The notes below the pieces were generated by a model. It ran no database searches and was not told the DNA's origin. It saw only the letters and a program-made list of their open reading frames with translations. From positions 27,816-91,815 of the forward strand of contig JANTFX010000001.1 of the NCBI GenBank assembly GCA_024763215.1: a stretch of 64,000 nucleotides of DNA, in the 5' to 3' direction. Source of the stretch: Candidatus Krumholzibacteriia bacterium (GTDB lineage: Bacteria; Krumholzibacteriota; Krumholzibacteriia; LZORAL124-64-63). Below, piece after piece: positions 31,217-64,000 of this stretch (its first letter is position 1; the number at the start of each line of letters is the position of its first letter). Position numbers and translations under genes: made by a program.

Positions 31217-31501
31217 TCAGAAGGCCACATAACCGCGGGCCACGGCGAGGTCTTCCTTCTTGCGCTCCAGCTCGATTTCCCATTCGGTGGAGCCTTCCTC
31301 GAGGTTGGGTTTGGTCCTGAGCAGGAAAGCGGTGGCTTCCTCGTCGATCTCGTCCTCGACCTTGAGGTCCCTGAGGATCAGGTTCTCGACCAGATGCCGG
31401 AAATCGGTCTCGGCGATCTCCAGGTCGATGATCTCCTCGTCCAGCAGGCGGTCACAGATCCGGCGGGCCAGCACCGCGACGCGTTCTTCGGTCAGTCGCA
31501 C
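31217..31501 (-). CDS. DUF507 family protein (paralog 1)
   Basis: 94 aa, acidic and helical. Shares the pattern I..L..K....L.........A.DE..DL...EDEID.EA with its neighbour. Confidence 0.6.
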   Translation of the reverse strand: MRLTEERVAVLARRICDRLLDEEIIDLEIAETDFRHLVENLILRDLKVEDEIDEEATAFLLRTKPNLEEGSTEWEIELERKKEDLAVARGYVAF

Positions 31502-31514
31502 CAGATTCCTCCGT

Positions 31515-31796
31515 CTACAGGGTGAAGTTCCGCTTGCGGGCGATCTCGCGCTTCATCTTGTTGCGCAGGGCGCCCACATCCATGTCCATGGCCCGGATCT
31601 CCTCGACGTTCTGGCTGATGAGGGCTTCCACCTCGGCGTCGATCTCGTCCTCGGCCTTCATGTTCTCCATCATGGCGTCGTCCGCGGCCCGCACCAGCAG
31701 ATCCTCGTTGGCCAGGATGTGGATATGGGGGTGGGCCTGGATCATCTTGAGGATCTTGTCCGAAAGGTATTCGATCTTGTGTTTGCTGAGCCTCAA
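31515..31796 (-). CDS. DUF507 family protein (paralog 2)
   Basis: 93 aa. Tandem paralog of the DUF507 gene at 31217..31501, with the same acidic EDEIDxExE core. Confidence 0.6.
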   Translation of the reverse strand: MRLSKHKIEYLSDKILKMIQAHPHIHILANEDLLVRAADDAMMENMKAEDEIDAEVEALISQNVEEIRAMDMDVGALRNKMKREIARKRNFTL

Positions 31797-32069
31797 TCCA
31801 TCCTCCGCGAAAGGTGGGGGCGCCCGGGCGACCAGCGCCCGGGGACCGCTTGGCGTCGATGTAAAAACCAGCGCTTATTGAAAGACTTTTCCCTTGGCTT
31901 GGCAAGGAAAAAGGGTCGGCGTATTGTGGGGCGGAACGCCGGGAGCTCCCGCCGGACGAAATATGGGAACCCGGAGCCGGACCTGGCCGTTTCATGCGGC
32001 TGTCGAGGGATGCGAAACGTGGGTGGGGTGAGGGTTGTGACCGGACGCCCCGGGCAGTGGAAGGTAGCC

Positions 32070-33055
<986 letters not shown>

Positions 33056-36096: not shown

Positions 36097-38010
36097 ATGA
36101 AGTTCGCCCGGGAGATATGGTTGTACGCGGTGCCCCTGGTGCCGGTGCTGTGGCTGCTGCTGCGGTGGGGCGACCGCCGGTCGCGCTCGCGTCTGCAAAG
36201 GCTGCTGGGAACCCTGGGCTACGCCCACATCGAAGAAGACCACCCCCGCGTGCGCGCCTGGAGCCGGTTCCTGCTGCTGGCCGGGATCTTCTGGCTGCTG
36301 CTGGCGGCAGCCAGGCCCCAGTGGGGCGCCAGCGAGGTCACGGTCACCCAGCGGGGTTCGGACATCGCCGTGGCCCTGGATATCTCCAATTCCATGCTGG
36401 CCCAGGATGTGGTCCCGGACCGGATCAGCCGTGCCAAGGGGGAGCTCGACTCGTTCCTGGACCGCCTCACCGACAGCCGCATCGGTCTGGTCTTCTTCGC
36501 CGGTTCGGCCTTCGTCCAGTGCCCCCTGACCCTGGATTATGCCACCGCCCGCATCTTCCTGGACATGGCGGGGCCGGACATGCTTTCGGAGCAGGGCACC
36601 GCCATCGCCGCGGCTCTCAAGACGGCCCATGAGCTGCTGACCAGGGGCAGGGGGGACCAGCCGCCGGGTTTCCAGGCCATCCTGCTGGTGACCGATGGGG
36701 AGGATCTGGAAGGCGACTGGGAGGCCGAGGCGAAGCGGTGCCTGGACGACGGCATCCGCATCATCCCGGTGGGCGTGGGGACGGCCGAGGGGGGGCTGAT
36801 CCCGGTGACCGACGACAAGGGCCAACCCGCGGGGTTCATGAAGGGGCAGGACGGGTCGGTGGTCATGAGCCGCCTCGACATGGCATCGCTGGAGAAGCTG
36901 GCCGCCCTGAGCGGCGGCAGCGCCTTCCGCATCGGGGTGGACGGCCTGGCAGGGGACAAGCTTTTCGCCGAGCTGGCGCGCCTGGGCAAGCGGGACCTGC
37001 AGGACAGGCGGATTTCCGCCTACAAGGAACGTTACCTGTGGCCGCTGCTGCTGGCGTTGATCTGCTTCTGGGCCCGCTGCCTGCTGGAGGCGGGCTGGAG
37101 CCGCCAGCGCGGCGGCGCCCTGGCGCAGAAGGGGGCCCTGCTGCTATTGCTGCCGGTGTTCCTGACCGGCGGTCAGGCCTCGGCCGGGATCGTCACGCCC
37201 CAGGCCGAAGCCATGGCCAGGGGCCGCCAGGATTACCTCAAGCAGGACTACCAGGGAGCCCTGTCGGAATTCGGGGCCGCCCTGGTGCATGATCCGGATA
37301 ATCCGCGCATCAGCCTGGCTTTGGGGGAGGCGCTCAGCCGGCTGAAGAAATACGACGATGCGGTGCGGGAATTCGGACGCACCCTGGAGTTGACGGACGA
37401 TCCGGCGCTGAAGGCGGAGGCCCTCTACAACGCCGGCACCACCCTGCTGGCGGCCGGGAAGGCCCAGGACGCGGTCTCCCGGCTGAAGGAGTCCCTGGCC
37501 CTGGATCCCGACCAGCCCGATGCCCTGGCCAACCTTGAACAGGCCCTGGAGCTTTTGCGGCAGCAGCAGCAACAGCAGAAGGATCAACAGCAGAAGCAGC
37601 AGGACCAGAACCAGGACCAGCAGAAAAAGGACAAGCAGCAGGACCAGTCCAAGGATCAGCAACAGAAGCAACAGCAGGAGCAGGGGCAGCAGGACCGGCA
37701 GCAAAATGACAACCGGCAGGACCGGCAACAGCAGCAGCAGGAGCAGCAGCAGGAACAGCAGGACCAGCAGAAGCAACAGGAGCATCAGAAACAACAGGAG
37801 CAGAAAGAGCAGCAGAAGCAGCAGGATCAGGACAAGCAGCAGCCGCAGGCCTCCGAGGGGAAGAAGAACCCGCAGCAGGGGGATGAGGATCTGGACAGGG
37901 AGCACGCCCTGCAGGTCCTCAAGGCCCTGGATCGGGATGAGCAGGAGCTGAAGCGGTCGGTCCAGAAGCGTCTCAAGGGCGGAAAACCAAGGAGCGGGAA
38001 ACGGTGGTAA
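36097..38010 (+). CDS. batB: BatB/BatC fusion: a vWA domain, a TPR domain and a long Gln-rich low-complexity tail
   Basis: MIDAS DISNSM. TPR repeats (ALGEALSRLKKYDDAVREF..., EALYNAGTTLLAAGKAQDAV). Then about 100 aa of QQ/K/D/E low complexity. Confidence 0.85.
   Translation: MKFAREIWLYAVPLVPVLWLLLRWGDRRSRSRLQRLLGTLGYAHIEEDHPRVRAWSRFLLLAGIFWLLLAAARPQWGASEVTVTQRGSDIAVALDISNSMLAQDVVPDRISRAKGELDSFLDRLTDSRIGLVFFAGSAFVQCPLTLDYATARIFLDMAGPDMLSEQGTAIAAALKTAHELLTRGRGDQPPGFQAILLVTDGEDLEGDWEAEAKRCLDDGIRIIPVGVGTAEGGLIPVTDDKGQPAGFMKGQDGSVVMSRLDMASLEKLAALSGGSAFRIGVDGLAGDKLFAELARLGKRDLQDRRISAYKERYLWPLLLALICFWARCLLEAGWSRQRGGALAQKGALLLLLPVFLTGGQASAGIVTPQAEAMARGRQDYLKQDYQGALSEFGAALVHDPDNPRISLALGEALSRLKKYDDAVREFGRTLELTDDPALKAEALYNAGTTLLAAGKAQDAVSRLKESLALDPDQPDALANLEQALELLRQQQQQQKDQQQKQQDQNQDQQKKDKQQDQSKDQQQKQQQEQGQQDRQQNDNRQDRQQQQQEQQQEQQDQQKQQEHQKQQEQKEQQKQQDQDKQQPQASEGKKNPQQGDEDLDREHALQVLKALDRDEQELKRSVQKRLKGGKPRSGKRW
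37557..37850 (+). repeat. CAG/CAA-rich coding microsatellite-like tract encoding the poly-Q/K/D/E region of BatB
   Basis: Dense cagcag/cagaag repeats, visible directly in the nucleotide sequence. Confidence 0.8.
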
Positions 38011-40673
38011 GGCCCATGGTGGTCAGGGAACGTTGGCGGCGGCGAGGGGCCCGGCCCGGGCTTGGCCTGCTCGTGTTGTTGTTGCTTACGGTCCCGGTGA
38101 CCGCCCTTGGCACGGGGATCTCCTGCCGGGCCGAGCTGAGCAGCGCCACGGCCAAGCAGGGGGATGTGGTCGTCCTGACGGTGACCGCCGAAGGCGATTT
38201 CGGGTGGTCGGCCGACTTCCAGCTTCCCGAGGTCGAGGGCGCCAACCTCGCCGGCGGCGGCACCAGCCAGAGCGTGTCGATGGTCAACGGCCGGACGCAG
38301 GCTTCGCTGAGCCGGACCTATTATCTGACGGTGACGGGGCAGAAGGACGTGATCATCGGCCCGGTGCGGGTCAGCGCCGGCAAGGAGCATTGCTCGACCA
38401 GGCCCTTGACCCTCAAGGTCGAACCGGGGACGGGCGGCCAGGCCGTGCCGCCGGCGATTACCGGGAACCGGTCCCTGCGGCCGGGAGCCTCCGGAGGCCA
38501 GGGGCGGCCGCAGGGGACGGGCCAGGGCGGCAAGCCGGGAGACGAGGTCTTCGTCACCCTGCAAACCGACCAGACCGAGGCCTACGTCGGGCAGCAGATC
38601 ATCCTGACCTTCAGCTACTGGCGCCGCGTCCAACCCTGGAACAACCCCACCTACACCCCTCCGCGGACCGAGGGTTTCTGGCGGGAGGATCTGGGTACCG
38701 AGCGCAACTTCCGCAGGGTCGTGCAGGGGCTCAACTACAGCGTGACCCAGGTCCGCTACGCCCTTTTCCCCACCCGCAGCGGCGACCTGGTCATCGAACC
38801 GGCGGAGCTGCGTTTTGCCGGGGATGTCTTCGACCGCTTCTTCGGCTCGCCCTCCCGGCGCCGGGGGCCCAAGGTTCTGCGCACCGATCCGGTGAAGATC
38901 ACCGTCCACGAGCCGCCCACGCCCCGACCGGAGGGTTTCAGCGGCCTGGTGGCGAGCCAGGTCGATCTGGCCTGCAGCGTGGACCGGGATTCGGTTCAGA
39001 CCGGCGAGGCGGTCAGCCTGAAGGTGACCCTCAAGTCCGACGGATTCCTCAAGGGGTTCGCGGGGCTCGTGGTCGATCCGCCGGAGGATGCCCAGCTTCA
39101 CGACGCCACCAACACCTTCGACACCAGCATCATCGGCGACCGGCTGGTCGGCAGCATCGCGTTGGAGAAGATCCTGGTTCCGCAACGGCCAGGGGTCATG
39201 CGGACGCCGCCCGTGGAACTGGTCTGGTTCGATGCCGGCAGCCGACGTTACCGCACGGCCACGGCCACGGTCCGGACCGTCATGGTGGGCGGGGAGGATC
39301 TGACCACCGGCCAGAAAGACACCTCGGGTTTCCTGCGGGCCGGGCTGACCAGGGTCGGTCGGGACCTGGCCTTCATTCACCCGGCGCCGCGCCACCTGCG
39401 CCGCGCAGGCCGGGTGTTCACAGCCGGCCCCCTGTGGTGGGTGCTGCTCGTGCTGCCGGTGATCCTGCTGGGGGTGCTGAAGGTCTACCTGGCGCGGGTT
39501 TCGGCGGCGGCCAGGGACCCCGAAGCCAGGCGGCGCAAGCAGGCCTGGGCCAGGGCCCGGACCCTGCTGGACGAGGCCCGTCGCCTGGATGACACCATGG
39601 GCATCTGCACCGCCGTGGCCCGGGCCGTGCGGGGCTATGTCGCCGACTGCACGGGGGTGCCCGAGGCCGAGGTCGAGGCCGGAACCGTACGCGCTTTCGC
39701 CGCGGATTTGATGCCTCCAGAGGATGGCGAGCGCCTGGTGGATATCCTCATGCTGTGCGATGGCATCCGTTTCGGGGGCACCGAGGCAGCCCGGCCGGCG
39801 GACCTGGTCGCCGAGACCAGGGACAAGCTGTCACAGTTGGATCGAGCTCGTACCCGCCGCCGTCCCGGCAAGTCGTCTGCGACCGCCCTCTTGCTGCTGG
39901 TCGCCCTCGGTTTGTGGGTCGCGTGGCCAGGATCAGCGGCCGCCGTGGAGGATGATCCGCAGCGTTTGCTGGCCGAGGGAAACCAGGCCTACACGGCCGG
40001 TGACCTGGACCAGGCCGTCAAGGCCTACGTGCGGGTGCTGGATCTGGGCGTGGACGATGCGGTTCCTCATTTCAACCTGGGCAACGCGTACGCCCGGCAG
40101 GGTAGGCTGGGCAAGGCGGTGGCCAGTTACCTCAGGGCGTTGCGGCTGGCCCCCCGGGACCGGGACATCCGCCGGAACCTGGCTCTGGTCAGGCGGAACC
40201 TGCGGGATATCGAACTGGCCGACCAGTCCCTGCCCCTGTTCATCGCCCAGGCTGCCCAGGCGGCGGGCTGGCTGTCCCTGACCGAATGGGGGGTGGTGGT
40301 CCTGGTCCTGGTGTGGATCCTGTGCGGCCTGGCCGCCTGGAGCATGGTGACCGGAAACCGGTCCGATGGCCTGCGCCGCGGCATGCTGGCGGCAGGGGCG
40401 GTGCTGGCGCTGTCAGCGTTCGTGGCCGGATGGCGTTACTACCAGGAGGAGATCATTCACCAGGGGGTCGTGGTCGGCGGCACCGTCGAGGTGCGGTCAG
40501 GGCCCGCCGAGAGCTTCCCGGTGCTCTTCGAGGTCCATGACGGCTTGACGGTCCACCTGAATGCCACCAGCGACCGATGGAGCCGGATCAGCCTGGGAGG
40601 CGACTGGACGGGGTGGCTGCCGGCCGACCAGGTCGAAGCGGTGGACCGGGCTCTTCCCCCTCAGGGACGGTAG
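38004..40673 (+). CDS. batD: BatD/BatE fusion: oxygen-tolerance BatD domain, TPR repeats and a C-terminal SH3-like domain
   Basis: 889 aa. The N-terminal signal/TM region and the BatD-like body overlap the batB stop. TPR block LGNAYARQGRLGKAVASYLRALRLAP. C-terminal SH3b-like block GTVEVRSGPAESFPVLFEVHDGLTVHL...WTGWLPADQV. Confidence 0.75.
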   Translation: MVRPMVVRERWRRRGARPGLGLLVLLLLTVPVTALGTGISCRAELSSATAKQGDVVVLTVTAEGDFGWSADFQLPEVEGANLAGGGTSQSVSMVNGRTQASLSRTYYLTVTGQKDVIIGPVRVSAGKEHCSTRPLTLKVEPGTGGQAVPPAITGNRSLRPGASGGQGRPQGTGQGGKPGDEVFVTLQTDQTEAYVGQQIILTFSYWRRVQPWNNPTYTPPRTEGFWREDLGTERNFRRVVQGLNYSVTQVRYALFPTRSGDLVIEPAELRFAGDVFDRFFGSPSRRRGPKVLRTDPVKITVHEPPTPRPEGFSGLVASQVDLACSVDRDSVQTGEAVSLKVTLKSDGFLKGFAGLVVDPPEDAQLHDATNTFDTSIIGDRLVGSIALEKILVPQRPGVMRTPPVELVWFDAGSRRYRTATATVRTVMVGGEDLTTGQKDTSGFLRAGLTRVGRDLAFIHPAPRHLRRAGRVFTAGPLWWVLLVLPVILLGVLKVYLARVSAAARDPEARRRKQAWARARTLLDEARRLDDTMGICTAVARAVRGYVADCTGVPEAEVEAGTVRAFAADLMPPEDGERLVDILMLCDGIRFGGTEAARPADLVAETRDKLSQLDRARTRRRPGKSSATALLLLVALGLWVAWPGSAAAVEDDPQRLLAEGNQAYTAGDLDQAVKAYVRVLDLGVDDAVPHFNLGNAYARQGRLGKAVASYLRALRLAPRDRDIRRNLALVRRNLRDIELADQSLPLFIAQAAQAAGWLSLTEWGVVVLVLVWILCGLAAWSMVTGNRSDGLRRGMLAAGAVLALSAFVAGWRYYQEEIIHQGVVVGGTVEVRSGPAESFPVLFEVHDGLTVHLNATSDRWSRISLGGDWTGWLPADQVEAVDRALPPQGR

Positions 40674-53353: not shown

Positions 53354-53521
53354 GCGTGGTCCTCTCTGGAGGCGGAGCTGCGGATGACGGTCGATCCCGA
53401 TATCATGTTCCGGATGACAACATGCGGGGTGTCGTCCACAATGTGGCCGTGACGCCACGAGGTGGCAAGTATGCAGGCGGGCCTCCGGCACCGGTGGCCA
53501 TCAAATCCTGGGGAGCGAACG

Positions 53522-54883
53522 GTGAAGAAGATCCTGGTCGTCGATGACGAAGCCGCCATCCGGGAGACCCTGGAACAGATCCTGGGCTACGAGGGCTACC
53601 ATGTGCAGAAGGCCGGATCCGGACCCGAGGCCTTGCAGCTGATGTCCTCAGGGCTGCCGGATGTGGTCCTGCTGGACGTCAAGATGCCGGGGATGGACGG
53701 CTTCGAGGTCCAGCAGCAGGTGGCGGCTCGGGGCTGGGATGTCCCGATCATCGTGATCTCCGGGCACGGCAACATCGAAACCGCCGTGGAGGCGGTGCGC
53801 AAGGGCGCCTATGATTTCCTGGAAAAACCCCTGGACCGCTCCCGGTTGCTGCTGACCATCGCCAACTGCCTGGGGCACCACAAGGTGGTCAGGGACAACC
53901 GCGTTCTCCAGCAGCAGCTGCTCGAGGGGCCTCCCCTGGTGGGCGACAGCCCGGCCATGCTGCAGGTCAAGGACTTCATCACCAAGGTCGCCGCCAGCGA
54001 CGCCACGGTCCTGATCACCGGGGAGAACGGCACGGGCAAGGAGCTGGTGGTCAAGGCGATCCACCGCGCCAGCTCCCGGGCCGACAGGCCCCTGGTGGAA
54101 GTCAATTGCGCGGCCATCCCCCGCGACCTGGTCGAGAGCGAATTGTTCGGTCACGAGAAGGGCAGTTTCACCGGGGCCGACCGCCCGCGGACCGGGAAGT
54201 TCGAGCAGGCCGACGGGGGCACCCTGTTCCTGGACGAGATCGGGGATATGAACGAGCAGGCCCAGGCCAAGGTTCTCAAGGCCGTGGAGGAGAGCCGCTT
54301 CCAGAGGGTGGGTGGGGACGAGACCAGGGAGGTGGACGTCCGGATCATCGCGGCCACCAACAGGGACCTGACGGCCCCGGATTCCGGCTTCCGGCAGGAC
54401 TTGTTTTTCCGCTTGAACGTGCTGGCGATCCACTTGCCGCCCCTGCGGGAAAGGGGGGATGATGTCGAGCTGCTGCTGAACTGGTTCATGGCCGACCTGG
54501 GACGCAGGCTCAAGCGCAAACCCCTGCGGTTCCACCCCGACGCGCTGGCGATCCTGAAGGCCTACTCCTGGCCGGGGAATGTGCGAGAATTGCGTAACCT
54601 CGTGGAAAGACTGTTGATTATGGCTGCCGGGGAGACCGTCAAGCCCGTGGATCTGCCGCCCATGAATGTGGTGGCTCAGGAGGCGGGCATGGAGGAGGGG
54701 CTGCTGGCGTGCGGCGATTTCCAGGAGTTCAAATCGCGCAGCGAGGCGATATTTCTGCAACACAAGTTGCGGGAGAACCTCTATAATGTTTCCAGAACGG
54801 CTGAGGCGCTGGGCATGCAGCGAAGCAACCTCTACAAGAAGATCGCCAAGTACGGTTTGCAGACCCAGCCCGATTTCGGGTAG
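53522..54883 (+). CDS. Sigma-54-dependent response regulator (NtrC family: REC + AAA+ + Fis-type HTH), GTG start
   Basis: The receiver domain has the phospho-acceptor context (VVLLDVKMPGMDG). The AAA+ domain has Walker A GENGTGKE and the GAFTGA variant GSFTGA. C-terminal HTH. No histidine kinase gene is adjacent. Confidence 0.88.
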   Translation: MKKILVVDDEAAIRETLEQILGYEGYHVQKAGSGPEALQLMSSGLPDVVLLDVKMPGMDGFEVQQQVAARGWDVPIIVISGHGNIETAVEAVRKGAYDFLEKPLDRSRLLLTIANCLGHHKVVRDNRVLQQQLLEGPPLVGDSPAMLQVKDFITKVAASDATVLITGENGTGKELVVKAIHRASSRADRPLVEVNCAAIPRDLVESELFGHEKGSFTGADRPRTGKFEQADGGTLFLDEIGDMNEQAQAKVLKAVEESRFQRVGGDETREVDVRIIAATNRDLTAPDSGFRQDLFFRLNVLAIHLPPLRERGDDVELLLNWFMADLGRRLKRKPLRFHPDALAILKAYSWPGNVRELRNLVERLLIMAAGETVKPVDLPPMNVVAQEAGMEEGLLACGDFQEFKSRSEAIFLQHKLRENLYNVSRTAEALGMQRSNLYKKIAKYGLQTQPDFG

Positions 54884-55353: not shown

Positions 55354-58300
55354 TTGATCCGGATCACCGATCCACTTCCTCGCCAAGGGATGCGGTTGAT
55401 GCAAGAACGGTATGATAGCCGAAAAAACCTGGATGGGGATTCCTCACGGATCCTGCCGTCCCTCAGCGCTGAGGACTGCATCCGCCTCGAGGAGATCGCC
55501 GACCTCCATTTCCACGCCTCCGCCTATTCTTCCTCCCTGGACTACTACCGCCAGCTCTGCCGGCCCGACATCCTGGCCCGCATGCCCCGCCAGCAGGCCT
55601 TCCGCCTGCTGCGCAAGTCCATCGACGCGGCCATCCTGCTGGGGGATTTCCACCATGTGGACCACCTGCTGGCCCACGCCGATGCCTTGCTGGCCGAAGC
55701 CCCGGTCGAGGATCCCGAACTCGCGGCGATCACCAGAGCCATCTTCCAGACCCGCAGGGCCACGGCCTTGCGTGAACGGGGCAGGCTCAACGATGCCCTG
55801 AACCTCGGCAAACGTGCCTTCTCCGTGCTGGCGATGACCGACCTGCATGCCGATGTCGCCATCCTTCAGGTCGGCATGGGGATCTGCTACATGCGCCTGG
55901 GCAAGCTGGAAAAGGCCGAGGAATTCTTCGGCGACGGCCTGGCCACCTTCCGCCGCATCGGCCATGACCTGGGGGTGGCCAACCTCCTGAACAACCTGGC
56001 GCTGATCCACAAGATCCGCTGCCGTTGGAGCAAGTCCCTGGACCTGATGGACCGCGCCGTGGAGCTGGCCCGGAGCATCGGCGCCAGCCATTTGCTGCCC
56101 GGTTTCTACCTCAACCAGGCCCTCGTGCTGCAGAAGACGAACAATCTCGGCGAGGCCCGCGGTTTGCTCGAGAAGGGCTTGCGGCTGGCCGTCAGCCTCG
56201 GCGACCGGTTGCGGCGCACGCGAATCCTGCTGGCGTACGGGCGCCTGGAGATTTTGGCCGGACGCCTGGCCCGGGCCGAGGAGATGATCCTCGAGGGCAA
56301 GACCCTGGCCGACGAATTCGGGCTCCTGCGTGAGTCCACCATCGCCGACGAATACCTGGGCGATGTGCTGCTGGGGAGGGGCGACCTGGAAAAGGCCCGT
56401 TTCAATTACGGGCTGGGTCTGGAAAAGGCCCGCCGCATCGCTTCGGGGAACGATCTGGAAGGTGAACTCCAGCGCCGTGTGGGGCAGGCCCTGCTTCTGG
56501 CCGGTGATCATCCCCAGGCCGTTGCGGTCAGCCAGGCCGCCATCGCGGTCTGCGAAAAGTGCGGTGAGGATTTCGAGATCGGATTCTGTCACCTTACCCT
56601 GGGGCAAGCCTACTCCGCCCTGGGGGATCGCAAGCAATCCGACCATCACTTCCGTCAGGCCATCGGCATTTTCCACGCCCAGAATCTCGGCCATCTGTGG
56701 TGCGAGGCCATCATCCGGTTCTGTGACCGGAGGCTGGAGACTGCGGGCGAAGCAGAACTGCTGCTGTTGCGGCGCTACCTCATGGACGCCCAGGAAAACG
56801 GCGCCGCCGCCGTCAGCGACCGTATGCTGTGTGAGGTGCTGGAGAGGCTGGCAGGAGTCCAGATCGGGCTGAAGCAATTCGACGATGCATTGCTGACGGT
56901 GTTCGAACTGGAACGGATCGGCTCCGGGCTCGGGGACGAAGGCCTCGCCCGCCGCGTCGCCGGGCTGCGCGGGACCATCGAAGCCGGTCTGCTGGGCGAT
57001 GTGCAGACGACCCGGCGGCACCTGAACGCCCTGTCCTCGGTGCCGGGGCTGCATGCCTCGGGCGATGCGTCGGTGCCCCGGAACCTGGGGTCGGTGCTGG
57101 CCGCGGGCATGGAAAGGGTCGAGGCCAGAGGCGGTTTCATCGCCATGACCACCCCCTCGGGCGAGGTGGAGATCACAGCCCGGAACGGCATGACGGAGAA
57201 CCTCTGCCTCCAGCTTACCAGGTGGTTCGGCGCCGCGGACGATGCCGACCAGGAAGCCAGGCCCGTCCTGTTTTCCCGCCTGGGCGCAGGCGACACCTTG
57301 CTGGACGACGTCCCGGCCGTGGCCACCGTGGCTGATTCCTGCATCTTCATGCCCATCGGGCTCTATGGCCGCAACTTCGGCTTGATGTTCCTGGCGCGCA
57401 AGGGCGCGGGGACGAGCTTCCCGCGTGCCTCCCTTGACTTCCTGGCGACCTACATGGGCTTTTTGGCCCTGTTCCTGCACGAGAAGGACAGGGGCACCGG
57501 CCATGGTCAGGAGGCCACGCCCCTGGCCGAGGTCGAGAGTTTCCAGAACATGATTACCCGCAACGCGGGGATGCTCGAGATGTTGGAGTTGGCCCGGAAG
57601 GTCGCCGCCAGCGAGCTGACCGTGCTGCTGACCGGAGAAACAGGAACGGGCAAGGGCCTGCTGGCCTACTCCATCCACGCCCTGAGCCACCGCTCGACCG
57701 GGAAATTCATGGCCATCAACTGCGCGGCCATCCCCGAAGCCCTGCTCGAGAGCGAGTTGTTCGGTCATAAGAAAGGCAGCTTCACCGGAGCTTACCAGGA
57801 CAAGCGCGGCCTGCTGGCCGAGGCCGAGGGCGGGACGGTATTCCTGGATGAAGTCGGGAAAATGCCCCTTGCCATGCAAGGCAAGCTGCTGCAGTTCCTC
57901 GATACGCGCAAGGTCAGGCGCGTGGGGGACAACCAGGAAACCCGGGTCGATGTGAGGATCATCTGCGCTTCCAAGCGTAATTTGCAGGAACTGGCCGCCG
58001 AGGGGCTTTTCCTCGAGGATCTTTATTACCGGCTGCGCGATTTTCCCCTTGCCATCCCGGCCCTGCGTGAACGTCCTGATGACATCATGCTGCTGGCCAG
58101 GCATTTCGTCCAGCGCTTCAGCCAGGAAGCTGGTCTGCCGGTGCCGGATATGGACCATTCTTTCCAGCAATGCCTGCTCGCCCACGACTGGCCAGGCAAC
58201 GTCAGGGAACTGGAGAAGACCCTCCAGCGCGCCATCGTGCTGGCCAAGGATGACCACACCTTGCGTCCCGAACATCTGCCCCGGGATATGAGGCTCCAGG

Positions 58301-58482
58301 AAGCTTCCTCGCCGGCGGCATCGACCTGCCCCTTGCGCGAAACCCTGGCAGTGGTCGAATGCCGGGAGATTGCCCGCGCCCTGGCCGTGTGCAACGGGAA
58401 CAAGGCCGCAACCGCCAGGGCGCTCAAGATCAGCTACCCGAATCTGCTGAAGAAGATCCGCCATTACGGAATCAGCACCTGA
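55354..58482 (+). CDS. Sigma-54-dependent transcriptional activator with a long N-terminal TPR array and a GAF-like domain (TPR-GAF-AAA+-HTH)
   Basis: 1042 aa. Multiple TPR-like repeats across the N-terminal 500 aa. A GAF-like block from about residue 560 to 700. AAA+ with Walker A GETGTGKG, GSFTGA and Walker B VFLDEVG. C-terminal Fis-type HTH. The start is uncertain (TTG 55354, or ATG 55390/55399). Confidence 0.85.
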   Translation: MIRITDPLPRQGMRLMQERYDSRKNLDGDSSRILPSLSAEDCIRLEEIADLHFHASAYSSSLDYYRQLCRPDILARMPRQQAFRLLRKSIDAAILLGDFHHVDHLLAHADALLAEAPVEDPELAAITRAIFQTRRATALRERGRLNDALNLGKRAFSVLAMTDLHADVAILQVGMGICYMRLGKLEKAEEFFGDGLATFRRIGHDLGVANLLNNLALIHKIRCRWSKSLDLMDRAVELARSIGASHLLPGFYLNQALVLQKTNNLGEARGLLEKGLRLAVSLGDRLRRTRILLAYGRLEILAGRLARAEEMILEGKTLADEFGLLRESTIADEYLGDVLLGRGDLEKARFNYGLGLEKARRIASGNDLEGELQRRVGQALLLAGDHPQAVAVSQAAIAVCEKCGEDFEIGFCHLTLGQAYSALGDRKQSDHHFRQAIGIFHAQNLGHLWCEAIIRFCDRRLETAGEAELLLLRRYLMDAQENGAAAVSDRMLCEVLERLAGVQIGLKQFDDALLTVFELERIGSGLGDEGLARRVAGLRGTIEAGLLGDVQTTRRHLNALSSVPGLHASGDASVPRNLGSVLAAGMERVEARGGFIAMTTPSGEVEITARNGMTENLCLQLTRWFGAADDADQEARPVLFSRLGAGDTLLDDVPAVATVADSCIFMPIGLYGRNFGLMFLARKGAGTSFPRASLDFLATYMGFLALFLHEKDRGTGHGQEATPLAEVESFQNMITRNAGMLEMLELARKVAASELTVLLTGETGTGKGLLAYSIHALSHRSTGKFMAINCAAIPEALLESELFGHKKGSFTGAYQDKRGLLAEAEGGTVFLDEVGKMPLAMQGKLLQFLDTRKVRRVGDNQETRVDVRIICASKRNLQELAAEGLFLEDLYYRLRDFPLAIPALRERPDDIMLLARHFVQRFSQEAGLPVPDMDHSFQQCLLAHDWPGNVRELEKTLQRAIVLAKDDHTLRPEHLPRDMRLQEASSPAASTCPLRETLAVVECREIARALAVCNGNKAATARALKISYPNLLKKIRHYGIST

Positions 58483-58980
58483 GCCGCAGGGTATCGGGTA
58501 TTTTTCGTATCTATTCCCGGCAGGACCATTAATTTTCTTTCCATGCCAAGTGTCATGTTTGCAACAGGTTAAAAAAACATGAAAATATATATAAACATTA
58601 TTAATAGAACGACCCTCCATTGCCGGGACGGCCTTCTTTCTGGTTCTGTAACTTGTTGCTAGAGAAGTATTTAAAAATATCGAAATTTATCCTGTTTCGG
58701 TATGATCCCTGCTGTTGTTACGGCAGAGAGGCGACATTGACAGGAAACCTCTTGTGAAGAGTTTGACGCAAATGACATTCGTGTTTTCGGGAGGAATGGT
58801 TCGTACCCTGTTGGTCCTAGGATGAGCAGGGGGCTTTCATCAAGAAGTGCCGGTCCGGTGGCTGTGAAGAGGTGGGGTCTGAGCAACCCACCGCGGCGGG
58901 CAAAGGGAAAGCCAGGATTTTTCTCCCGAAACGCGAAACCTCCCTGGATCTGATCACCGGATCCCAGGAAAAAGAGCCCT

Positions 58981-59039
58981 TCGATCTTGAAAAGGCGAGA
59001 TTCAAGATCGAGTCACCGCAAGGTGGGGCTCTTTTTTTT
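58981..59039 (+). terminator. Double hairpin plus U8 tract (candidate intrinsic terminator / sRNA 3' end) inside the long IGR
   Basis: A perfect 11-bp inverted repeat TCGATCTTGAA...TTCAAGATCGA (58981-59011). Then the hairpin GAGUCACC-GCAA-GGUGGGGCUC and TTTTTTTT (59032-59039). Confidence 0.45.
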
Positions 59040-59184: not shown

Positions 59185-59305
59185 GAGGCGTGACTGTTCA
59201 ACCTCTTAGATGACAATGCATTAGGATGGGGACGATTCTGGGCTACCTGCGTGCCTTCTACCTCCGGAAGAGAATTCCGCCCCCCGGATGGGTCGGGGGT
59301 CCTTG

Positions 59306-59321
59306 TGGCATGGACCGTGCG
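59306..59321 (+). promoter_or_regulatory. Candidate sigma-54 (-24/-12) promoter TGGCAT-N5-GTGC
   Basis: GG and GC separated by the canonical 10 nt. It lies 45 nt upstream of the lipoprotein ATG at 59365 and immediately downstream of two sigma-54 activator genes. Confidence 0.45.
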
Positions 59322-59364: not shown

Positions 59365-60379
59365 GATGGATGCTCTGAATAACAGGAAACGGTCCCGGAA
59401 ACGCTGGAGTGCCGCCGTGGGCATGGTCTTGCTGACCCTGTGCATGCTGGGGGTGGCCGCATGCAATAACGAGGATTGCGTCAGTTGTATCAACACTCCC
59501 GAGCCGCCGGTCGTTCCCACCGGTGTCTACTCGGTCAGCGGGGACAACCAGGTGACCGTCTACTGGTATGATATCTCCTATTCCCCTTATGACGGACGCT
59601 ACAACGAGAACGTGGTTTCTTATGCGGTGTACAGCAGGTTCTTCCAGGAGGGGGACCTGAATGATCCCAACCGGGATTTCTATTACATAGGGGAAGTAGC
59701 CTGGGACGAGAATTTCGATCCGGACACGGGCCAGCATTGGTTCGTCGATACGGACGTTCAGAACGGTTTCGAATACGAATACGCCGTCACCGCGGTCAAT
59801 GCAGCGGGTATGGAAAGTGCCCTGAGTTACGAAAATGTCGTCGATGCCCCCCTGCCCATGAGCCCTCCGGGCACCTTCGTGGAGGTATTCGATTCCCTCA
59901 ACGGGAGTTCCCGTCAACTGGGCGGTTTCGATTTCAGCCTGGCCGGGGAGAACCCCACCGATCTGTATGCCGGCAGGGTGGACCCCAACCAGGCCGAGTC
60001 CACCGCGGACATCCGGGTGTATTTCGAGGGCTCGGTGCCCTATGTCGAGCGCACCTCCACCAACGTGAAGATCCAGGATTTCGGGGTCTTCCTCGACGGG
60101 CAAGATAACCTGATCTTTTCCGGGGTGTCCTGGGCGCCCGCCGACGGTTACTCCAGCACCGGCAAGCTGGAACTGGTCGATGGCCACATCTACGTGCTGG
60201 AGCTCTACGATCCGCAGACCCAGAGCCTCCACTACGCCAAGTTCGGCGTGGTGGGGATCGCGCCCACGGTCTCGGTGCGTCTGGTCTGGGCATACCAGCT
60301 TATTCCGGGACTGCCGGAACTCAAGGCCCCGGAAGCGCCGGAGCCCGCCGATGGTCAACTCCGGTTCATCCGCTTCTAG
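59365..60379 (+). CDS. Secreted lipoprotein with an FN3/Ig-like beta-sandwich region
   Basis: RBS GGAGGTGG. Signal peptide plus lipobox (LGVAAC), followed by a Cys-rich stretch (NNEDCVSCINTPEPP). Strong GC3 codon bias on this strand. Confidence 0.7.
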
Positions 60380-60406
60380 CGGGATCGGAAAAGGGAGCGT
60401 GCAGTC

Positions 60407-62149
60407 ATGAAACGGATAATCAAGGCAAGCCTGCTGGTCCTGGCCCTCGGTGCGATGATTCCCATGTCCACCCTGGCCGCTGCTGCCGATGGCAAGGACA
60501 AGGATTTCGACTACGGCCAGGTCGACCTGCGGGCGGGCGTCTGGGTGGACAAGTCCGCCGATGAGGTCTACCAGGCCGGCGAGCGCCTGGATGTCGGGTT
60601 CCAGGTCAACCGGGACGCCTACGCCGTGGTCTACCGGATCGATACCGACGGTCTGGTCACCGTCCTGTGGCCCCGCACCCGCATGGACGACGGATTCGTC
60701 TTCGCCGGTCATGAATACCAGGTGCCGCTGCCAGGGTCGGCCCCCATGCAGGTCGGCGATGACGAGGGGGAGGGCTACGTGGAAATCGTGGCTTCCCTGT
60801 ACCCCTTCGATCTGCGGGAACTGGAAATCGATTTCCACGGCGAGGACCGCCGGGACCCCTACGTCTACGAGGTAGCCGGGGACCCCTTCCTGGCCATGAA
60901 CGAGGTCAACTACGCCATCACGGGTCTGGAAGATACGGCCGACTACGTGGTGACCAACTACACCACCTACTACGTGCACCGCAAGGTGGACCATCCACGT
61001 TACCTGTGTTCCCAGTGCCATGTGGATGACGGCCAGCAGTATGATCCCTACCGGGACCACTGCACCCTGGACATCGAGTATGATTACGGCTGGAGCAACC
61101 GCTGGTACGACACCTACGGGTATTATCCCGTCTACGCCCAGCCGGTATACGTGTACGTCGATCCCTGGACCTACCGCCCCTGGGTCAACTTCTGGTACTG
61201 GCCGGATTATGTCTGCGGACCCACGCTGGGATACACCTGGTATTCCGATTGCTGGGCCTGGAGCTATTCCCCCTACTACTACGGTGATGTCTACACCTAT
61301 TACAACGGAGGCGGGCGCAGGTACCGCCCCCTGACGCCCGGTGGTGGGGACCGGGTGGCGCACAAGACCCGGGACTATCGGCGCGTGACGCCCCTGGTCG
61401 AGAACGACGGGCCCGATGCCCGCCAGCGCCAGGCCATGACGCGCCGCTCCCCCGCTGCGGGTGAGGCAACGAGAACCAGGACCCCCGCGGCAGGCGGCGG
61501 GGGAACCACCGTGGCCCGCGGGAATTTCCGCGGTGAGCCGCCCGTCATCAGCGCCGGGCCGGTGGTGGACGATCCGGGCGACAGGAACCTGAAGCCCGGC
61601 CTGCGCATCCGGGAACCGGGCCAGCCGGTGGGCCGGGAACGCTCCGGCACCGGATACCGGCACGTCGCCGGGGACCGGGCGGCGAAGCCGGCCCTCAGAC
61701 CGGTGACGCCGGCGGCGCCCGTGCGGAAGCCCGGGACGACCCGGAGAGCAGGAACCCCAGCGGGCGTTCACAGGACGCGGACTCCTTCCGGGGACCGGGA
61801 AGCCTCCGGCCGCACCATCAAGCCGGTCGAGCCCCGGCGTCGAGGAACCAGGATCTGGAATTCAGGTGCCGCCACCAACCGCGGGAGCGATCGCTCGCAG
61901 CGGGTGCAGCCGCGATCCGATTCCCGCTCCAACCGGGCGCGGCAGACACCGCGGACGGCGCCGCGGACACGGACCCGTGACAGCGGTGACCGTTCCGGCG
62001 GCAAGTCCGACACCAGGGTCCGCAGCGGCGATTCAGGGGGCAGCAGGACCCAGGGGGTCAAGGAACCGGCGCGAGGAAGTGGATCGGCGACCCGCGGCAA
62101 AGGTGGCACGAGCAGCTCCCGCAGCAGCTCCGGAAGCCGCCGAAGGTAG
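60407..62149 (+). CDS. Secreted DUF4384-like protein with a Tyr/Trp-rich segment and a 270-aa Arg/Ser/Thr/Gly-rich disordered C-terminus
   Basis: RBS AAGGGAG, 27 nt after the upstream stop, so probably an operon. Signal peptide MKRIIKASLLVLALGAMIPMSTLAAA. An N-terminal domain resembling DUF4384 (AGERLDVGFQVNRDAYAVVYRIDTDGLVTVLWP). Then a Y/W-rich block and a basic RS-rich tail. Confidence 0.7.
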   Translation: MKRIIKASLLVLALGAMIPMSTLAAAADGKDKDFDYGQVDLRAGVWVDKSADEVYQAGERLDVGFQVNRDAYAVVYRIDTDGLVTVLWPRTRMDDGFVFAGHEYQVPLPGSAPMQVGDDEGEGYVEIVASLYPFDLRELEIDFHGEDRRDPYVYEVAGDPFLAMNEVNYAITGLEDTADYVVTNYTTYYVHRKVDHPRYLCSQCHVDDGQQYDPYRDHCTLDIEYDYGWSNRWYDTYGYYPVYAQPVYVYVDPWTYRPWVNFWYWPDYVCGPTLGYTWYSDCWAWSYSPYYYGDVYTYYNGGGRRYRPLTPGGGDRVAHKTRDYRRVTPLVENDGPDARQRQAMTRRSPAAGEATRTRTPAAGGGGTTVARGNFRGEPPVISAGPVVDDPGDRNLKPGLRIREPGQPVGRERSGTGYRHVAGDRAAKPALRPVTPAAPVRKPGTTRRAGTPAGVHRTRTPSGDREASGRTIKPVEPRRRGTRIWNSGAATNRGSDRSQRVQPRSDSRSNRARQTPRTAPRTRTRDSGDRSGGKSDTRVRSGDSGGSRTQGVKEPARGSGSATRGKGGTSSSRSSSGSRRR

Positions 62150-62466: not shown

Positions 62467-62496
62467 TTGACCGTGTGGGGCTGCTTTATCTATACT
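62467..62496 (+). promoter_or_regulatory. Sigma-70-type promoter: TTGACC, 18-nt spacer, TATACT
   Basis: A near-consensus -35/-10 pair about 65 nt upstream of the metalloprotease ATG at 62563. Confidence 0.45.
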
Positions 62497-62562: not shown

Positions 62563-64000
62563 ATGCGGATCCGGCCTGACCGTTTTTCCCTGCTGTTGCT
62601 GAGCCTCCTGTGTGCGGTGAGCATGACGGGTATCGGCCGTTCCCTGGCCGCGGCTCCCCTTGCCGGGCAGCGGGATCTGAACCGGCTCCTCGCGCGCACG
62701 GACGCCATGGCTCCGGGGCTGCTGAGGGCGACGGCTGCGGTGCGTGATGACGGCGACCGGGACCTTCAGCGCCGGCGCCTCGCCGGCGAAAAGGCGCCCG
62801 CGGAATTGCGGGCCGTGGTCGTGATGTGCGACTTCAGCGACAGCCTGCTGCTCGGCAGGTACGGCACCCTGCCCGGGGAATTTCCGCCGCCGACCCAGAG
62901 CGAGTTCCTTTTCGCGGCCCACGATTCGGTCTATTTCCACCATTTGTTGCAGGATGTCGCCCAGTACTACCGGGCGGTCAGCGGGGGGCGGTTCACCCTG
63001 GGGTTCACCATCGTTCCCGAGGTCGTGAACCTGCCCCGGCCCATGGCGTATTACGGCGACGATGCCGAGCGGGGCGAGCAGCCGGTGGTGCTGGCGCGGG
63101 ACGCGCTGTCGGCCCTGGATCCGGTGGTCGATTTCAGCGCCTACGATACCGTGATCCTGATCCATGCCGGAGCCGGCCAGGAGACCGATATCCTGGGCGC
63201 CCATCCCGAGCAGATCTCCAGCACCTATCTGGGCCCAAGGGATTTCGTGGCCGCGGTGCAGGACAGCATCCTGGACGACCCCTGGCTCGTCGGGGGTGAT
63301 TTCCCGGACTCCGTCGGCCTGGACCACGTCCTGGTCTTGCCGGAAACGGAATACCAGGCGCCCTTCGGGGCCATCGGCAGCCTGGGCGTCTATTGCTTCG
63401 AGGTCGGCCTGCGCCTGGGCATGCTGTCCCTCAGCGATTTCACCCCGGCGGGGAATCCCGACAGCCAGGGCATCGGCATCATGGGGCTGATGGGGTACGG
63501 CCTGTACGCCGGAGCGGGGCTGATTCCCCCTGAACCCTGCGCCTTCAACAAGCTGCTCATGGGCTGGATCGACCCGGTGGCCGTGCAGCCCGGTTCGCCG
63601 GGCCGCTACGAATTGTCGCCCGCCGAAGATCCCCAGGGGGCGGCCGCGGCCGCGCGGGTGGACATCAACGGGCAGGAGTACTGGCTGCTGGAATACCGGC
63701 TCCAGGATCCTGACGGCAACAACGTGTTCTCCTTCGGGGACGACAAGAACCACAACGGGATCCCCGATTTCTACGACATGGATTCGGCCCTGGGCAACGG
63801 GATCCCGACGGGGTTCTTCGACCCGGCCGTCGATTCCCTCGAGACGCTGGTCGGGGCCGAATGGGACTTTGCCATGACGGCCAATTCCGCCCGGCCCCGC
63901 GGGGTCAACGCGGCAGGCAGCGGAATCTTCATCTGGCACGTGGACGAGGGCGTCATCCGCGACGCGTTCGGCGCCGAAGGCAACCTGTTCAACGCCGACC
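62563..64000 (+). CDS. Secreted M6-family (immune inhibitor A-like) metalloprotease domain protein, 3'-partial
   Basis: The frame is open to the window end, so it is absent from the ORF track (which needs a stop). Signal peptide MRIRPDRFSLLLLSLLCAVSM. The N-terminal M6-type block LRAVVVMCDFSDSLL. No HEXXH lies within the window; it is expected downstream. Confidence 0.6.
   Translation, partial: MRIRPDRFSLLLLSLLCAVSMTGIGRSLAAAPLAGQRDLNRLLARTDAMAPGLLRATAAVRDDGDRDLQRRRLAGEKAPAELRAVVVMCDFSDSLLLGRYGTLPGEFPPPTQSEFLFAAHDSVYFHHLLQDVAQYYRAVSGGRFTLGFTIVPEVVNLPRPMAYYGDDAERGEQPVVLARDALSALDPVVDFSAYDTVILIHAGAGQETDILGAHPEQISSTYLGPRDFVAAVQDSILDDPWLVGGDFPDSVGLDHVLVLPETEYQAPFGAIGSLGVYCFEVGLRLGMLSLSDFTPAGNPDSQGIGIMGLMGYGLYAGAGLIPPEPCAFNKLLMGWIDPVAVQPGSPGRYELSPAEDPQGAAAAARVDINGQEYWLLEYRLQDPDGNNVFSFGDDKNHNGIPDFYDMDSALGNGIPTGFFDPAVDSLETLVGAEWDFAMTANSARPRGVNAAGSGIFIWHVDEGVIRDAFGAEGNLFNAD

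Follow-up and report, generated by a model that had tools for sequence, protein, structure and literature searches.

Proteins carrying the DUF4384 domain (PF14326), an extracytoplasmic beta-sandwich, have no established function, and the literature mentions the domain only as an accessory part of caspase-like proteases and Ser/Thr kinases. Here we describe a protein built on this domain, which is encoded by a gene (hereafter Y) located on the forward strand at positions 60407..62149 of a 64,000-nucleotide stretch of DNA from Candidatus Krumholzibacteriia bacterium (GCA_024763215.1, contig JANTFX010000001.1, positions 27,816 to 91,815); the whole stretch is referred to as the window, and all the coordinates are counted from its first nucleotide. 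Residues 54-130 of Y match the Pfam model with 47.6 bits, i.e., above the gathering score (cutoff 27), and are modelled as a beta-sandwich too; the CxxCH-containing knuckle, the aromatic block and the polycationic tail that follow them lie outside the DUF4384 family model. The biofilm scaffold protein RbmA of Vibrio cholerae and the macroglobulin MG domains resemble Y at the fold level only.

As far as composition is concerned, the proteins of the FUS family and the Bacillus spore-coat proteins CotG/CotB combine Arg/Gly/Ser-rich disordered tails with Tyr-rich regions. Like them, Y has an aromatic-rich region adjoining R/G/S-rich disorder, keeps composition rather than sequence and shows lineage-specific repeats; unlike them, it is predicted to be exported via Sec, its aromatic module is conserved position by position, and there is no homology. 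The literature on DUF4384 and that on Krumholzibacteriota and the T9SS (type IX secretion system) yielded no paper on the Y family, and neither a paper nor a curated family was found for the architecture of Y, whose annotation goes no further than "DUF4384 domain-containing" or hypothetical. The architecture is thus new, on a known but uncharacterised domain. On the whole, the sequence data argue that Y is a real, exported and widely conserved protein of four modules.

Architecture and distribution of Y

The gene, its ribosome-binding site and the segments of its product are the following (ORF, open reading frame; GC3, GC content at third codon positions; AF2, AlphaFold 2; pLDDT, predicted local distance difference test; L002, the closest orthologue):

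60407..62149, forward strand: gene Y, 580 aa, ATG start, stop codon included; recognised from the ORF, GC3 and homologues
60393..60397, forward strand: Shine-Dalgarno-like GGGAG of Y, read from the sequence, 9 nt 5' of the ATG
60407..60487, forward strand: Sec-type signal peptide, about residues 1-27 (MKRIIKASLLVLALGAMIPMSTLAAAA), with no lipobox Cys, read from the sequence
60512..60985, forward strand: predicted folded head, about residues 36-193, a DUF4384 beta-sandwich, macroglobulin/FnIII/PKD-like
60986..61066, forward strand: invariant cofactor or metal motif (the knuckle), residues 194-220, unchanged throughout the superfamily down to 25% identity
61067..61315, forward strand: Tyr/Trp/Pro-rich block, about residues 221-303 (YDYGW...DPWTYRPWVNFWYWP...SPYYY), 33% Tyr, Trp and Phe, 93% identical to L002
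61316..62146, forward strand: polycationic disordered tail, residues 304-580, ending in RRR; recognised from composition and AF2 pLDDT below 50
61316..61333, forward strand: tail motif RRYRPL, residues 304-309, mean column identity 0.81 in 61 orthologues
61598..61609, forward strand: tail motif GLRI, residues 398-401, mean column identity 0.82, also seen in the homologue alignment
61817..61867, forward strand: tail motif IKPVEPRRRGTRIWNSG, residues 471-487, with the islands PVEPRR and TRIW at 0.71 (473-484)

The GC3 of the Y frame is 0.79-0.87 over the entire ORF, tail included. The comparison with L002 revealed nucleotide differences at codon positions 1/2/3 of 26/20/65 in the N-terminal part, 3/4/34 in the aromatic block and 82/57/130 in the tail, whose alignment is nearly gap-free. 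The excess at third positions in the three segments, together with the near absence of gaps in the tail, implies that the whole ORF is translated and under purifying selection. An earlier note on this DNA, made from the sequence alone, had described a real plus-strand gene for a DUF4384 protein with a signal peptide and a Shine-Dalgarno sequence; the Pfam domain, the hundreds of homologues and the codon-position signal bear this out, and the Sec-type signal peptide, as read from the sequence, has its counterpart in the hydrophobic N-terminal leaders visible in the full-length family members aligned.

AF2 was run on Y with 32 and then with 138 sequences. In the resulting models, the DUF4384 sandwich of the head is extended by a GDPFLAM helix (158-172) and by a long strand (181-191), so that the head would be a beta-sandwich of the binding or scaffold type, with no enzyme signature. 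The aromatic block and the tail remained below a pLDDT of 50 at both alignment depths, leaving no fold to search. Searching the PDB with the whole of Y retrieved one marginal match (3rhe, a benzaldehyde dehydrogenase, E 7.6e-4, residues 39-102), and family profiles gave either noise (galectin-13, E 0.25) or no match.

The first search with Y retrieved 32 homologues, mostly from metagenome-assembled genomes (MAGs) of Candidatus Krumholzibacteriia and 52-67% identical over the first 313 residues; the DUF4384 domain is precomputed for most of the homologues. A profile of residues 131-313 was then probed against 1.84 billion cluster representatives, and it matched 191 proteins at E<1e-3 (38 of them at E<1e-30), all of 400-685 aa and all at the same relative position. 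The common length range and match position imply that this module occurs in no other architecture. Even the distant members keep the same layout, that is, a signal peptide, a DUF4384-like domain, a GDPF(L/V)AM helix, YPRY(L/I)CxxCH, DPY...C and a Trp/Tyr-rich stretch, followed by a long basic R/S/G/P tail with a basic end.

Within a collection of species representatives, 213 genomes, from Krumholzibacteriota, Eisenbacteria and a third clade, harbor a relative of Y, and the best 80 of these 213 are all Krumholzibacteriota-type MAGs. A distant clade, with more than 430 proteins, belongs to Candidatus Eisenbacteria, and a third one, of low GC, is represented by the loci L084-L086 and the proteins P0137, P0299 and P0300. 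The NCBI labels of the MAGs with a strictly syntenic locus (L002-L081) vary between Krumholzibacteriia, "uncultured Fibrobacteraceae", Gemmatimonadales, Gemmatimonas sp., Latescibacterota and plain "bacterium", which suggests an inconsistent taxonomy for one lineage.

Selected segments, gene partners and a possible envelope scaffold

Residues 205-305 of Y comprise 23 Tyr, 9 Trp and 1 Phe (33%), against a background of 6.2% for the three residues in the remaining 39 products encoded by the window and 23% in the next-highest segment of 100 aa. The aromatic richness pointed out in the earlier note is confirmed; its description of the block as low-complexity does not hold, given that the identity to L002 is 93% in this segment (80% in the N-terminal part and 63% in the tail) and that many Trp, Tyr, Pro and Asp residues are invariant. 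The invariant or nearly invariant positions are D226, Y227, W229, N231, W233, D252, P253, W254, P258, W259, N261, W263, Y264, P266, W285, S288, P289 and Y290. Over 61 orthologues, the mean per-column conservation is 0.71 for the head, 0.74 for the knuckle, 0.65 for the aromatic block and 0.34 for the tail.

In the comparison with L002, the aromatic block is the most strongly selected segment of Y, and it is unfolded in the monomeric, cofactor-free AF2 model. That the segment under the strongest purifying selection has no predicted fold of its own would suit an interface, or a fold that depends on a cofactor. The outcome of the modelling may hint that the block needs to oligomerise or to bind a partner or a cofactor; alternatively, the coevolution signal may have been too shallow. 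A strongly selected Tyr/Trp-rich segment that prediction cannot fold makes the family a useful target.

The tail (residues 306-580) is made up of 19% Arg, 15% Gly, 19% Ser plus Thr and 9% Pro, and its net charge of +38 is the highest in the window. The tails of 62 complete orthologues have a median length of 288 aa, a net charge of +37.5, 17% Arg, 23% Ser/Thr and 14% Gly, and nearly always terminate in RR or KR; the net charge is positive in every orthologue scored. Those of Eisenbacteria are shorter and less cationic, and N, S, Q and R abound in those of the third clade. In a set of 77 loci, the Arg content of the tail increases with genomic GC (Spearman +0.52) and that of Lys decreases (-0.61), while their sum, with a median of 0.22, is independent of it (rho -0.04). 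The constancy of Arg plus Lys, while the two residues trade off with GC, points to selection on cation density, and the Arg-rich character of the tail would largely reflect GC. The pattern of tail conservation, with four conserved islands among the short motifs listed above, is typical of a disordered region that carries short linear motifs. Lineage-specific tandem repeats, such as SDRGGM(S/A)R x4 and KPxVDRSKPRxGQxK x4, were observed in the tails of P0053, P0062 and P0085; these private repeats would indicate a rapid repeat turnover under compositional constraint. According to these data, the tail is indeed strongly basic and disordered (AF2 pLDDT below 50), as the earlier note had proposed, but it is not the rarity that the note had seen in it, being a universal trait of the Y family with conserved short motifs and a conserved density of cations. 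It may represent a clean natural example, beyond the cytoplasm, of a disordered region under selection for charge density.

Gene Y lies 27 nt downstream of the following gene, which is found directly upstream of Y in every locus examined:

59366..60379, forward strand: gene X, an FN3-like lipoprotein with the lipobox LGVAAC and the mature N-terminus C-NNEDCVSC; GGAGG 6 nt 5' of the ATG at 59366

In Krumholzibacteriota, the gene order is a sigma-54 enhancer-binding protein (EBP) gene, X, Y, an M6-like gene and a gene (Z) for a barrel of the PorV/PorQ family. In Eisenbacteria, it is a TPR/GAF sigma-54 activator, X, Y, Z and Metallophos, with no M6-like gene; in the third clade, genes for a DUF4783 protein and for a sensor histidine kinase of about 1300 aa come after the X-Y pair, in place of Z. 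The X protein of the window shares 29% identity with that of Eisenbacteria (E 2e-23) and 31% with the third-clade orthologue (E 3e-25), which in turn is 41% identical to the Eisenbacteria one (E 5e-62). X and Y are thus an obligate gene pair, and in Krumholzibacteriota and Eisenbacteria the barrel Z belongs to the same cluster.

The earlier note had also placed Y in an operon with a Cys-rich FN3-like lipoprotein. The short distance and the synteny of the pair everywhere examined agree with the first part of this statement; as for the rest, the fn3 match is sub-threshold (one orthologue, E 6e-4, 20.4 bits, cutoff 25) and "Cys-rich" refers to no more than three Cys, located at the mature N-terminus. 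This N-terminus reads C-x2-(D/E)DCxxC in Krumholzibacteriia, where nearly all the X copies end in a hydrophobic ...Phi-(R/S/K)-(F/L) (RFIRF in the window). The C-terminal domain of X has GHxY, YAK, WAYQ and EL as invariants, and no PDB match was obtained for X by profile.

Taking these data together, we tentatively favour a role of Y as an outer-membrane-associated scaffold or tether, whose polycationic tail would act on anionic envelope polymers and which may carry haem. In this scheme, Y would be exported by Sec, after which the knuckle would bind its cofactor (haem c or a metal held by Cys3-His); the head and the aromatic segment would form the structured part docking on the outer-membrane partners X and/or Z. 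The tail would reach out and bind polyanions (peptidoglycan, the phosphates of lipopolysaccharide (LPS), acidic exopolysaccharide) through electrostatic and cation-pi interactions, and the motifs RRYRPL, GLRI and IKPVEPRxRGTRIW and the terminal RR could make specific protein contacts. The resulting outer-membrane-anchored scaffold or tether would be made on demand under sigma-54. In support of this reading, the architecture, tail included, is shared down to 25% identity. The occurrence of Y in two uncultured phyla of the FCB (Fibrobacteres-Chlorobi-Bacteroidetes) group, with no fewer than 213 genomes at the species level, with its fixed lipoprotein pairing and a conserved sigma-54 promoter, suggests a core envelope function.

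The CxxCH motif and the other readings of Y

An invariant motif of the type CxxCH...PYxxxC (residues 194-219), which had escaped the earlier note, directly precedes the aromatic block. Of the 298 proteins collected for the family, 271 have it, and the remaining ones are presumably fragments. Its layout in Y is V194-x2-P197-R198-Y199-x-C201-x2-C204-H205 ... P214-Y215-x3-C219, with CSQCH (C201-S-Q-C204-H205) at 61007-61021, and HPRYLCxQCH is nearly invariant in the alignment with the first 32 homologues. The residues that are invariant in both clades down to 25-32% identity are Y55, G58, Y76, G82, P89, G121, F134, D159 and P160 in the head, and V194, R198, Y199, C201, C204, H205, P214, Y215, C219, W233 and P246 further on. 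The chances that the knuckle is a covalent haem c site or a Cys3-His metal site appear roughly even. Either way, an invariant CxxCH in a new sequence context is a further reason to regard the family as a useful target.

If haem is bound, Y might primarily be a new kind of monohaem c-type cytochrome, a role that we regard as rather unlikely, although several lines of evidence speak for it. The CxxCH would bind haem covalently in the periplasm and the Tyr/Trp block would wrap it, which would explain why the block does not fold in silico without a cofactor; at the outer membrane, Y would transfer electrons or perform redox/radical chemistry in concert with X and Z, the basic tail only positioning it, and X/Y/Z would be a split counterpart of cytochrome-porin fusions like Cyc2. 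The two Cys and the His directly following the second one are invariant while the x positions vary freely (YD, ND, NQ, SQ, AD and others), as expected under this reading, and Y has, like c-type cytochromes, both a CxxCH and a Sec-type signal peptide (read from the sequence, also in the homologues). The nearby P214/Y215 and C219, all invariant, could serve as a His-orienting Pro or a distal ligand. Furthermore, matches to the NapB haem site recur, though below threshold, in three of 13 Y-family members (E 0.07-0.3, best 0.068), and the C-terminal domain of X gives a weak match to HmuY, a haem-binding lipoprotein (two of 13 orthologues, E 0.0018-0.0025, sub-threshold).

Like monohaem c-type cytochromes (NapB-type site, Cyc2), Y thus combines an invariant CxxCH, a putative Sec signal and an outer-membrane barrel gene in the same cluster; unlike them, it has its motif at residue 201, after a beta-sandwich and not near the N-terminus, and no porin in the same polypeptide. 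As to the source organisms, c-type cytochromes (Cyc2-like proteins, cytochrome c oxidase) have been reported in MAGs of both phyla (PMC9769843), and the loci L020 and L059 derive from "Dive96" Krumholzibacteriota MAGs, whose sample name is that of PMC9769843.

On the other hand, no cytochrome c family matched the Y-family members at threshold, no PDB match was obtained by profile, and zinc-ribbon Pfam families match equally weakly (two of 13 members, best E 0.037, sub-threshold). The third invariant Cys, C219, speaks against a cytochrome, as do the presence of a single haem site in an operon with no other redox partner, the absence of cytochrome c maturation genes (Ccm or CcsBA) within the 64-kb window, and the AF2 pLDDT of merely 56-67 around the motif; in addition, PorV/PorQ barrels are not known as electron conduits. 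Nor does the motif have the pattern of a zinc ribbon or knuckle, since one CxxC and a single distal Cys are conserved and H205 adjoins C204.

The barrel and the neighbour on the other side of Y bring in a second reading, to which we assign a low probability, i.e., that Y is an accessory of a module resembling type IX secretion and attachment, together with Z and, in Krumholzibacteriota, with the product of the following gene; it might, for example, hold cargo or anionic LPS at the attachment site.

62563..64000, forward strand: 5' part of the M6-like pseudo-protease gene, which runs off the window; NF052323 E 2e-37, TIGR03296 E 1e-21

The best family of this protein is NF052323, "inactivated metalloprotease", matched below its cutoff, and the HExxH of M6 (InhA-like) enzymes is replaced by CFEVGLR in the window and by (F/Y)E(V/F)GL(R/H) in all of the about 75 orthologues. 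The latter are about 1100 aa long and show a weak match to a type A T9SS sorting domain (Por_Secre_tail, E 0.011, below cutoff, in the neighbour of L001). The Z gene lies beyond the window end and is present in L002; the PorV/PorQ model NF033709 (cutoff 90) is matched by Z with 154 bits in L001 and with 111 and 105 bits in L082 and L083. As in the pairs PorU-PorV and PorZ-PorQ of the T9SS, a PorV/PorQ-family barrel is therefore found beside a large secreted protein (M6-like) with a type A sorting-domain-like C-terminus. The cluster differs from these pairs in that Y has neither a sorting domain nor similarity to PorU, PorZ or any Por/Gld/Spr protein, and in that the M6-like gene is missing in Eisenbacteria.

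It is similarly improbable, in our opinion, that Y is released to the cell surface or the matrix as an adhesive or phase-separating protein, in which the Tyr/Trp block and the Arg-rich tail would form cation-pi networks, as the stickers of FUS do, and the tail would bind extracellular DNA or acidic exopolysaccharide. Polyanion binding and phase separation or adhesion, both suggested in the earlier note, are compatible with the sequence data. Nothing shows a passage of Y across the outer membrane, and no T9SS sorting domain, autotransporter or other known secretion domain was found in it with Pfam and NCBIfam; in particular, there was no match to a sorting domain (Por_Secre_tail/TIGR04183, type B) at E<=1, the C-terminus being the basic tail. 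Moreover, the aromatic block, with its 93% identity and invariant Trp, Tyr, Pro and Asp residues, is too conserved in position for a sticker-and-spacer region, and the replacement of Arg by Lys in the low-GC lineages would weaken an Arg-specific cation-pi chemistry. The cytochrome, T9SS-accessory and matrix readings partly overlap.

Lastly, the possibility that the ORF on the plus strand is non-coding, wholly or in its tail part, and that an antisense ORF of 837 aa or a frameshifted product is the true gene, is negligible: the GC content of the tail region (0.74-0.77) does give rise to long ORFs in several frames, but the Pfam domain, the hundreds of homologues with the same layout, the conserved tail motifs and the codon-position signal of the three segments all belong to the plus strand, and across 77 orthologous loci the length of the longest ORF on the antisense strand varies between 127 and 1997 aa (341 aa in L002). 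With its length not conserved, the antisense ORF, which the earlier note had likewise considered an unlikely gene, was ruled out; it is a high-GC artefact.

Probable sigma-54 regulation and the RNA upstream of X

The region upstream of the X-Y operon harbors the following elements:

55354..58482, forward strand: EBP gene whose product has TPR, AAA+ and helix-turn-helix (HTH) domains (Pfam Sigma54_activat E 6e-65, TPR_12, HTH_8)
58698-58713, forward strand: second sigma-54-type element, conserved, 5' of the spacer RNA
about 58722-59039, forward strand: structured RNA of about 320 nt (the spacer RNA), within the 880 nt that separate the EBP gene from X
59014-59039, forward strand: intrinsic terminator of the spacer RNA
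59306..59321, forward strand: sigma-54 (-24/-12) promoter of the X-Y operon, TGGCATGGACCGTGCG, recognised from its positional conservation upstream of X

Upstream of X, most of the about 75 loci scored, the two from Eisenbacteria included, have TGGCAC(G/A)-N4-yTGC in an unchanged relative position; scanning the whole window for the canonical TGGCAC-N5-TTGCW gave matches not above chance. The conserved -24/-12 element and the 27-nt gap between X and Y make it very probable that the X-Y operon is sigma-54-dependent. Since TGGCATGGACCGTGCG sits within the mechanically called X ORF (start at 59288), X most likely begins with the ATG at 59366. The position of the TPR-EBP gene is conserved in all the Krumholzibacteriota and Eisenbacteria loci examined, and its product is the likely activator of both downstream sigma-54 promoters.

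The spacer RNA was aligned over 21 loci, and the alignment supports nine helices with 57 pairs, including a long-range helix of 16 bp (58778-58793 with 58923-937). The cells of the alignment are paired in 96.5% of cases, compared to 37-61% with slid partners, and 82 are changed on both sides, compared to 9-21 in the slid controls; none of 500 shuffles reached the observed values. Two loops, GAGGUGGGGUCUG and GGCGAGA, are invariant. Probing the spacer with Rfam 15 retrieved no family, with one snoRNA match at chance level. On the basis of covariation and of the element preceding it, a new structured RNA with a sigma-54 promoter is well supported. A small conserved ORF was considered as an alternative content of the region and rejected, as the 17-codon ORF of the window lacks, by eye, a corresponding ATG in L005. 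The position of the RNA beside an EBP gene resembles that of GlmY or Qrr, and it may offer an entry point to the regulation by sigma-54 and small RNAs in these phyla.

Just upstream of the TPR-EBP gene, another sigma-54 activator gene is conserved in Krumholzibacteriota (53453-54880, forward strand), its product being a response regulator of the NtrC/AtoC type. Between the two EBP genes, L001, L082 and L083 encode a protein of about 100 aa without a family match, for which tblastn found no match in the window at E 1e-5. Downstream, Y and the M6-like gene are 413 nt apart, and this gap contains a sigma-70-like pattern (TTGACC-18-TATACT, 10/12 matches, 62467-62496, forward strand), so that the inserted M6-like gene may have its own promoter.

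Further upstream, a MoxR-type AAA+ ATPase and BatD/TPR genes, forming a cluster like that of Bat aerotolerance, were found at 31233-33053 and 37941-40670 (forward strand). The remaining genes of the window are housekeeping ones, coding for DnaX, RecA, RmlD, phosphoribosyl pyrophosphate (PRPP) synthase, an amidase and RlmN.

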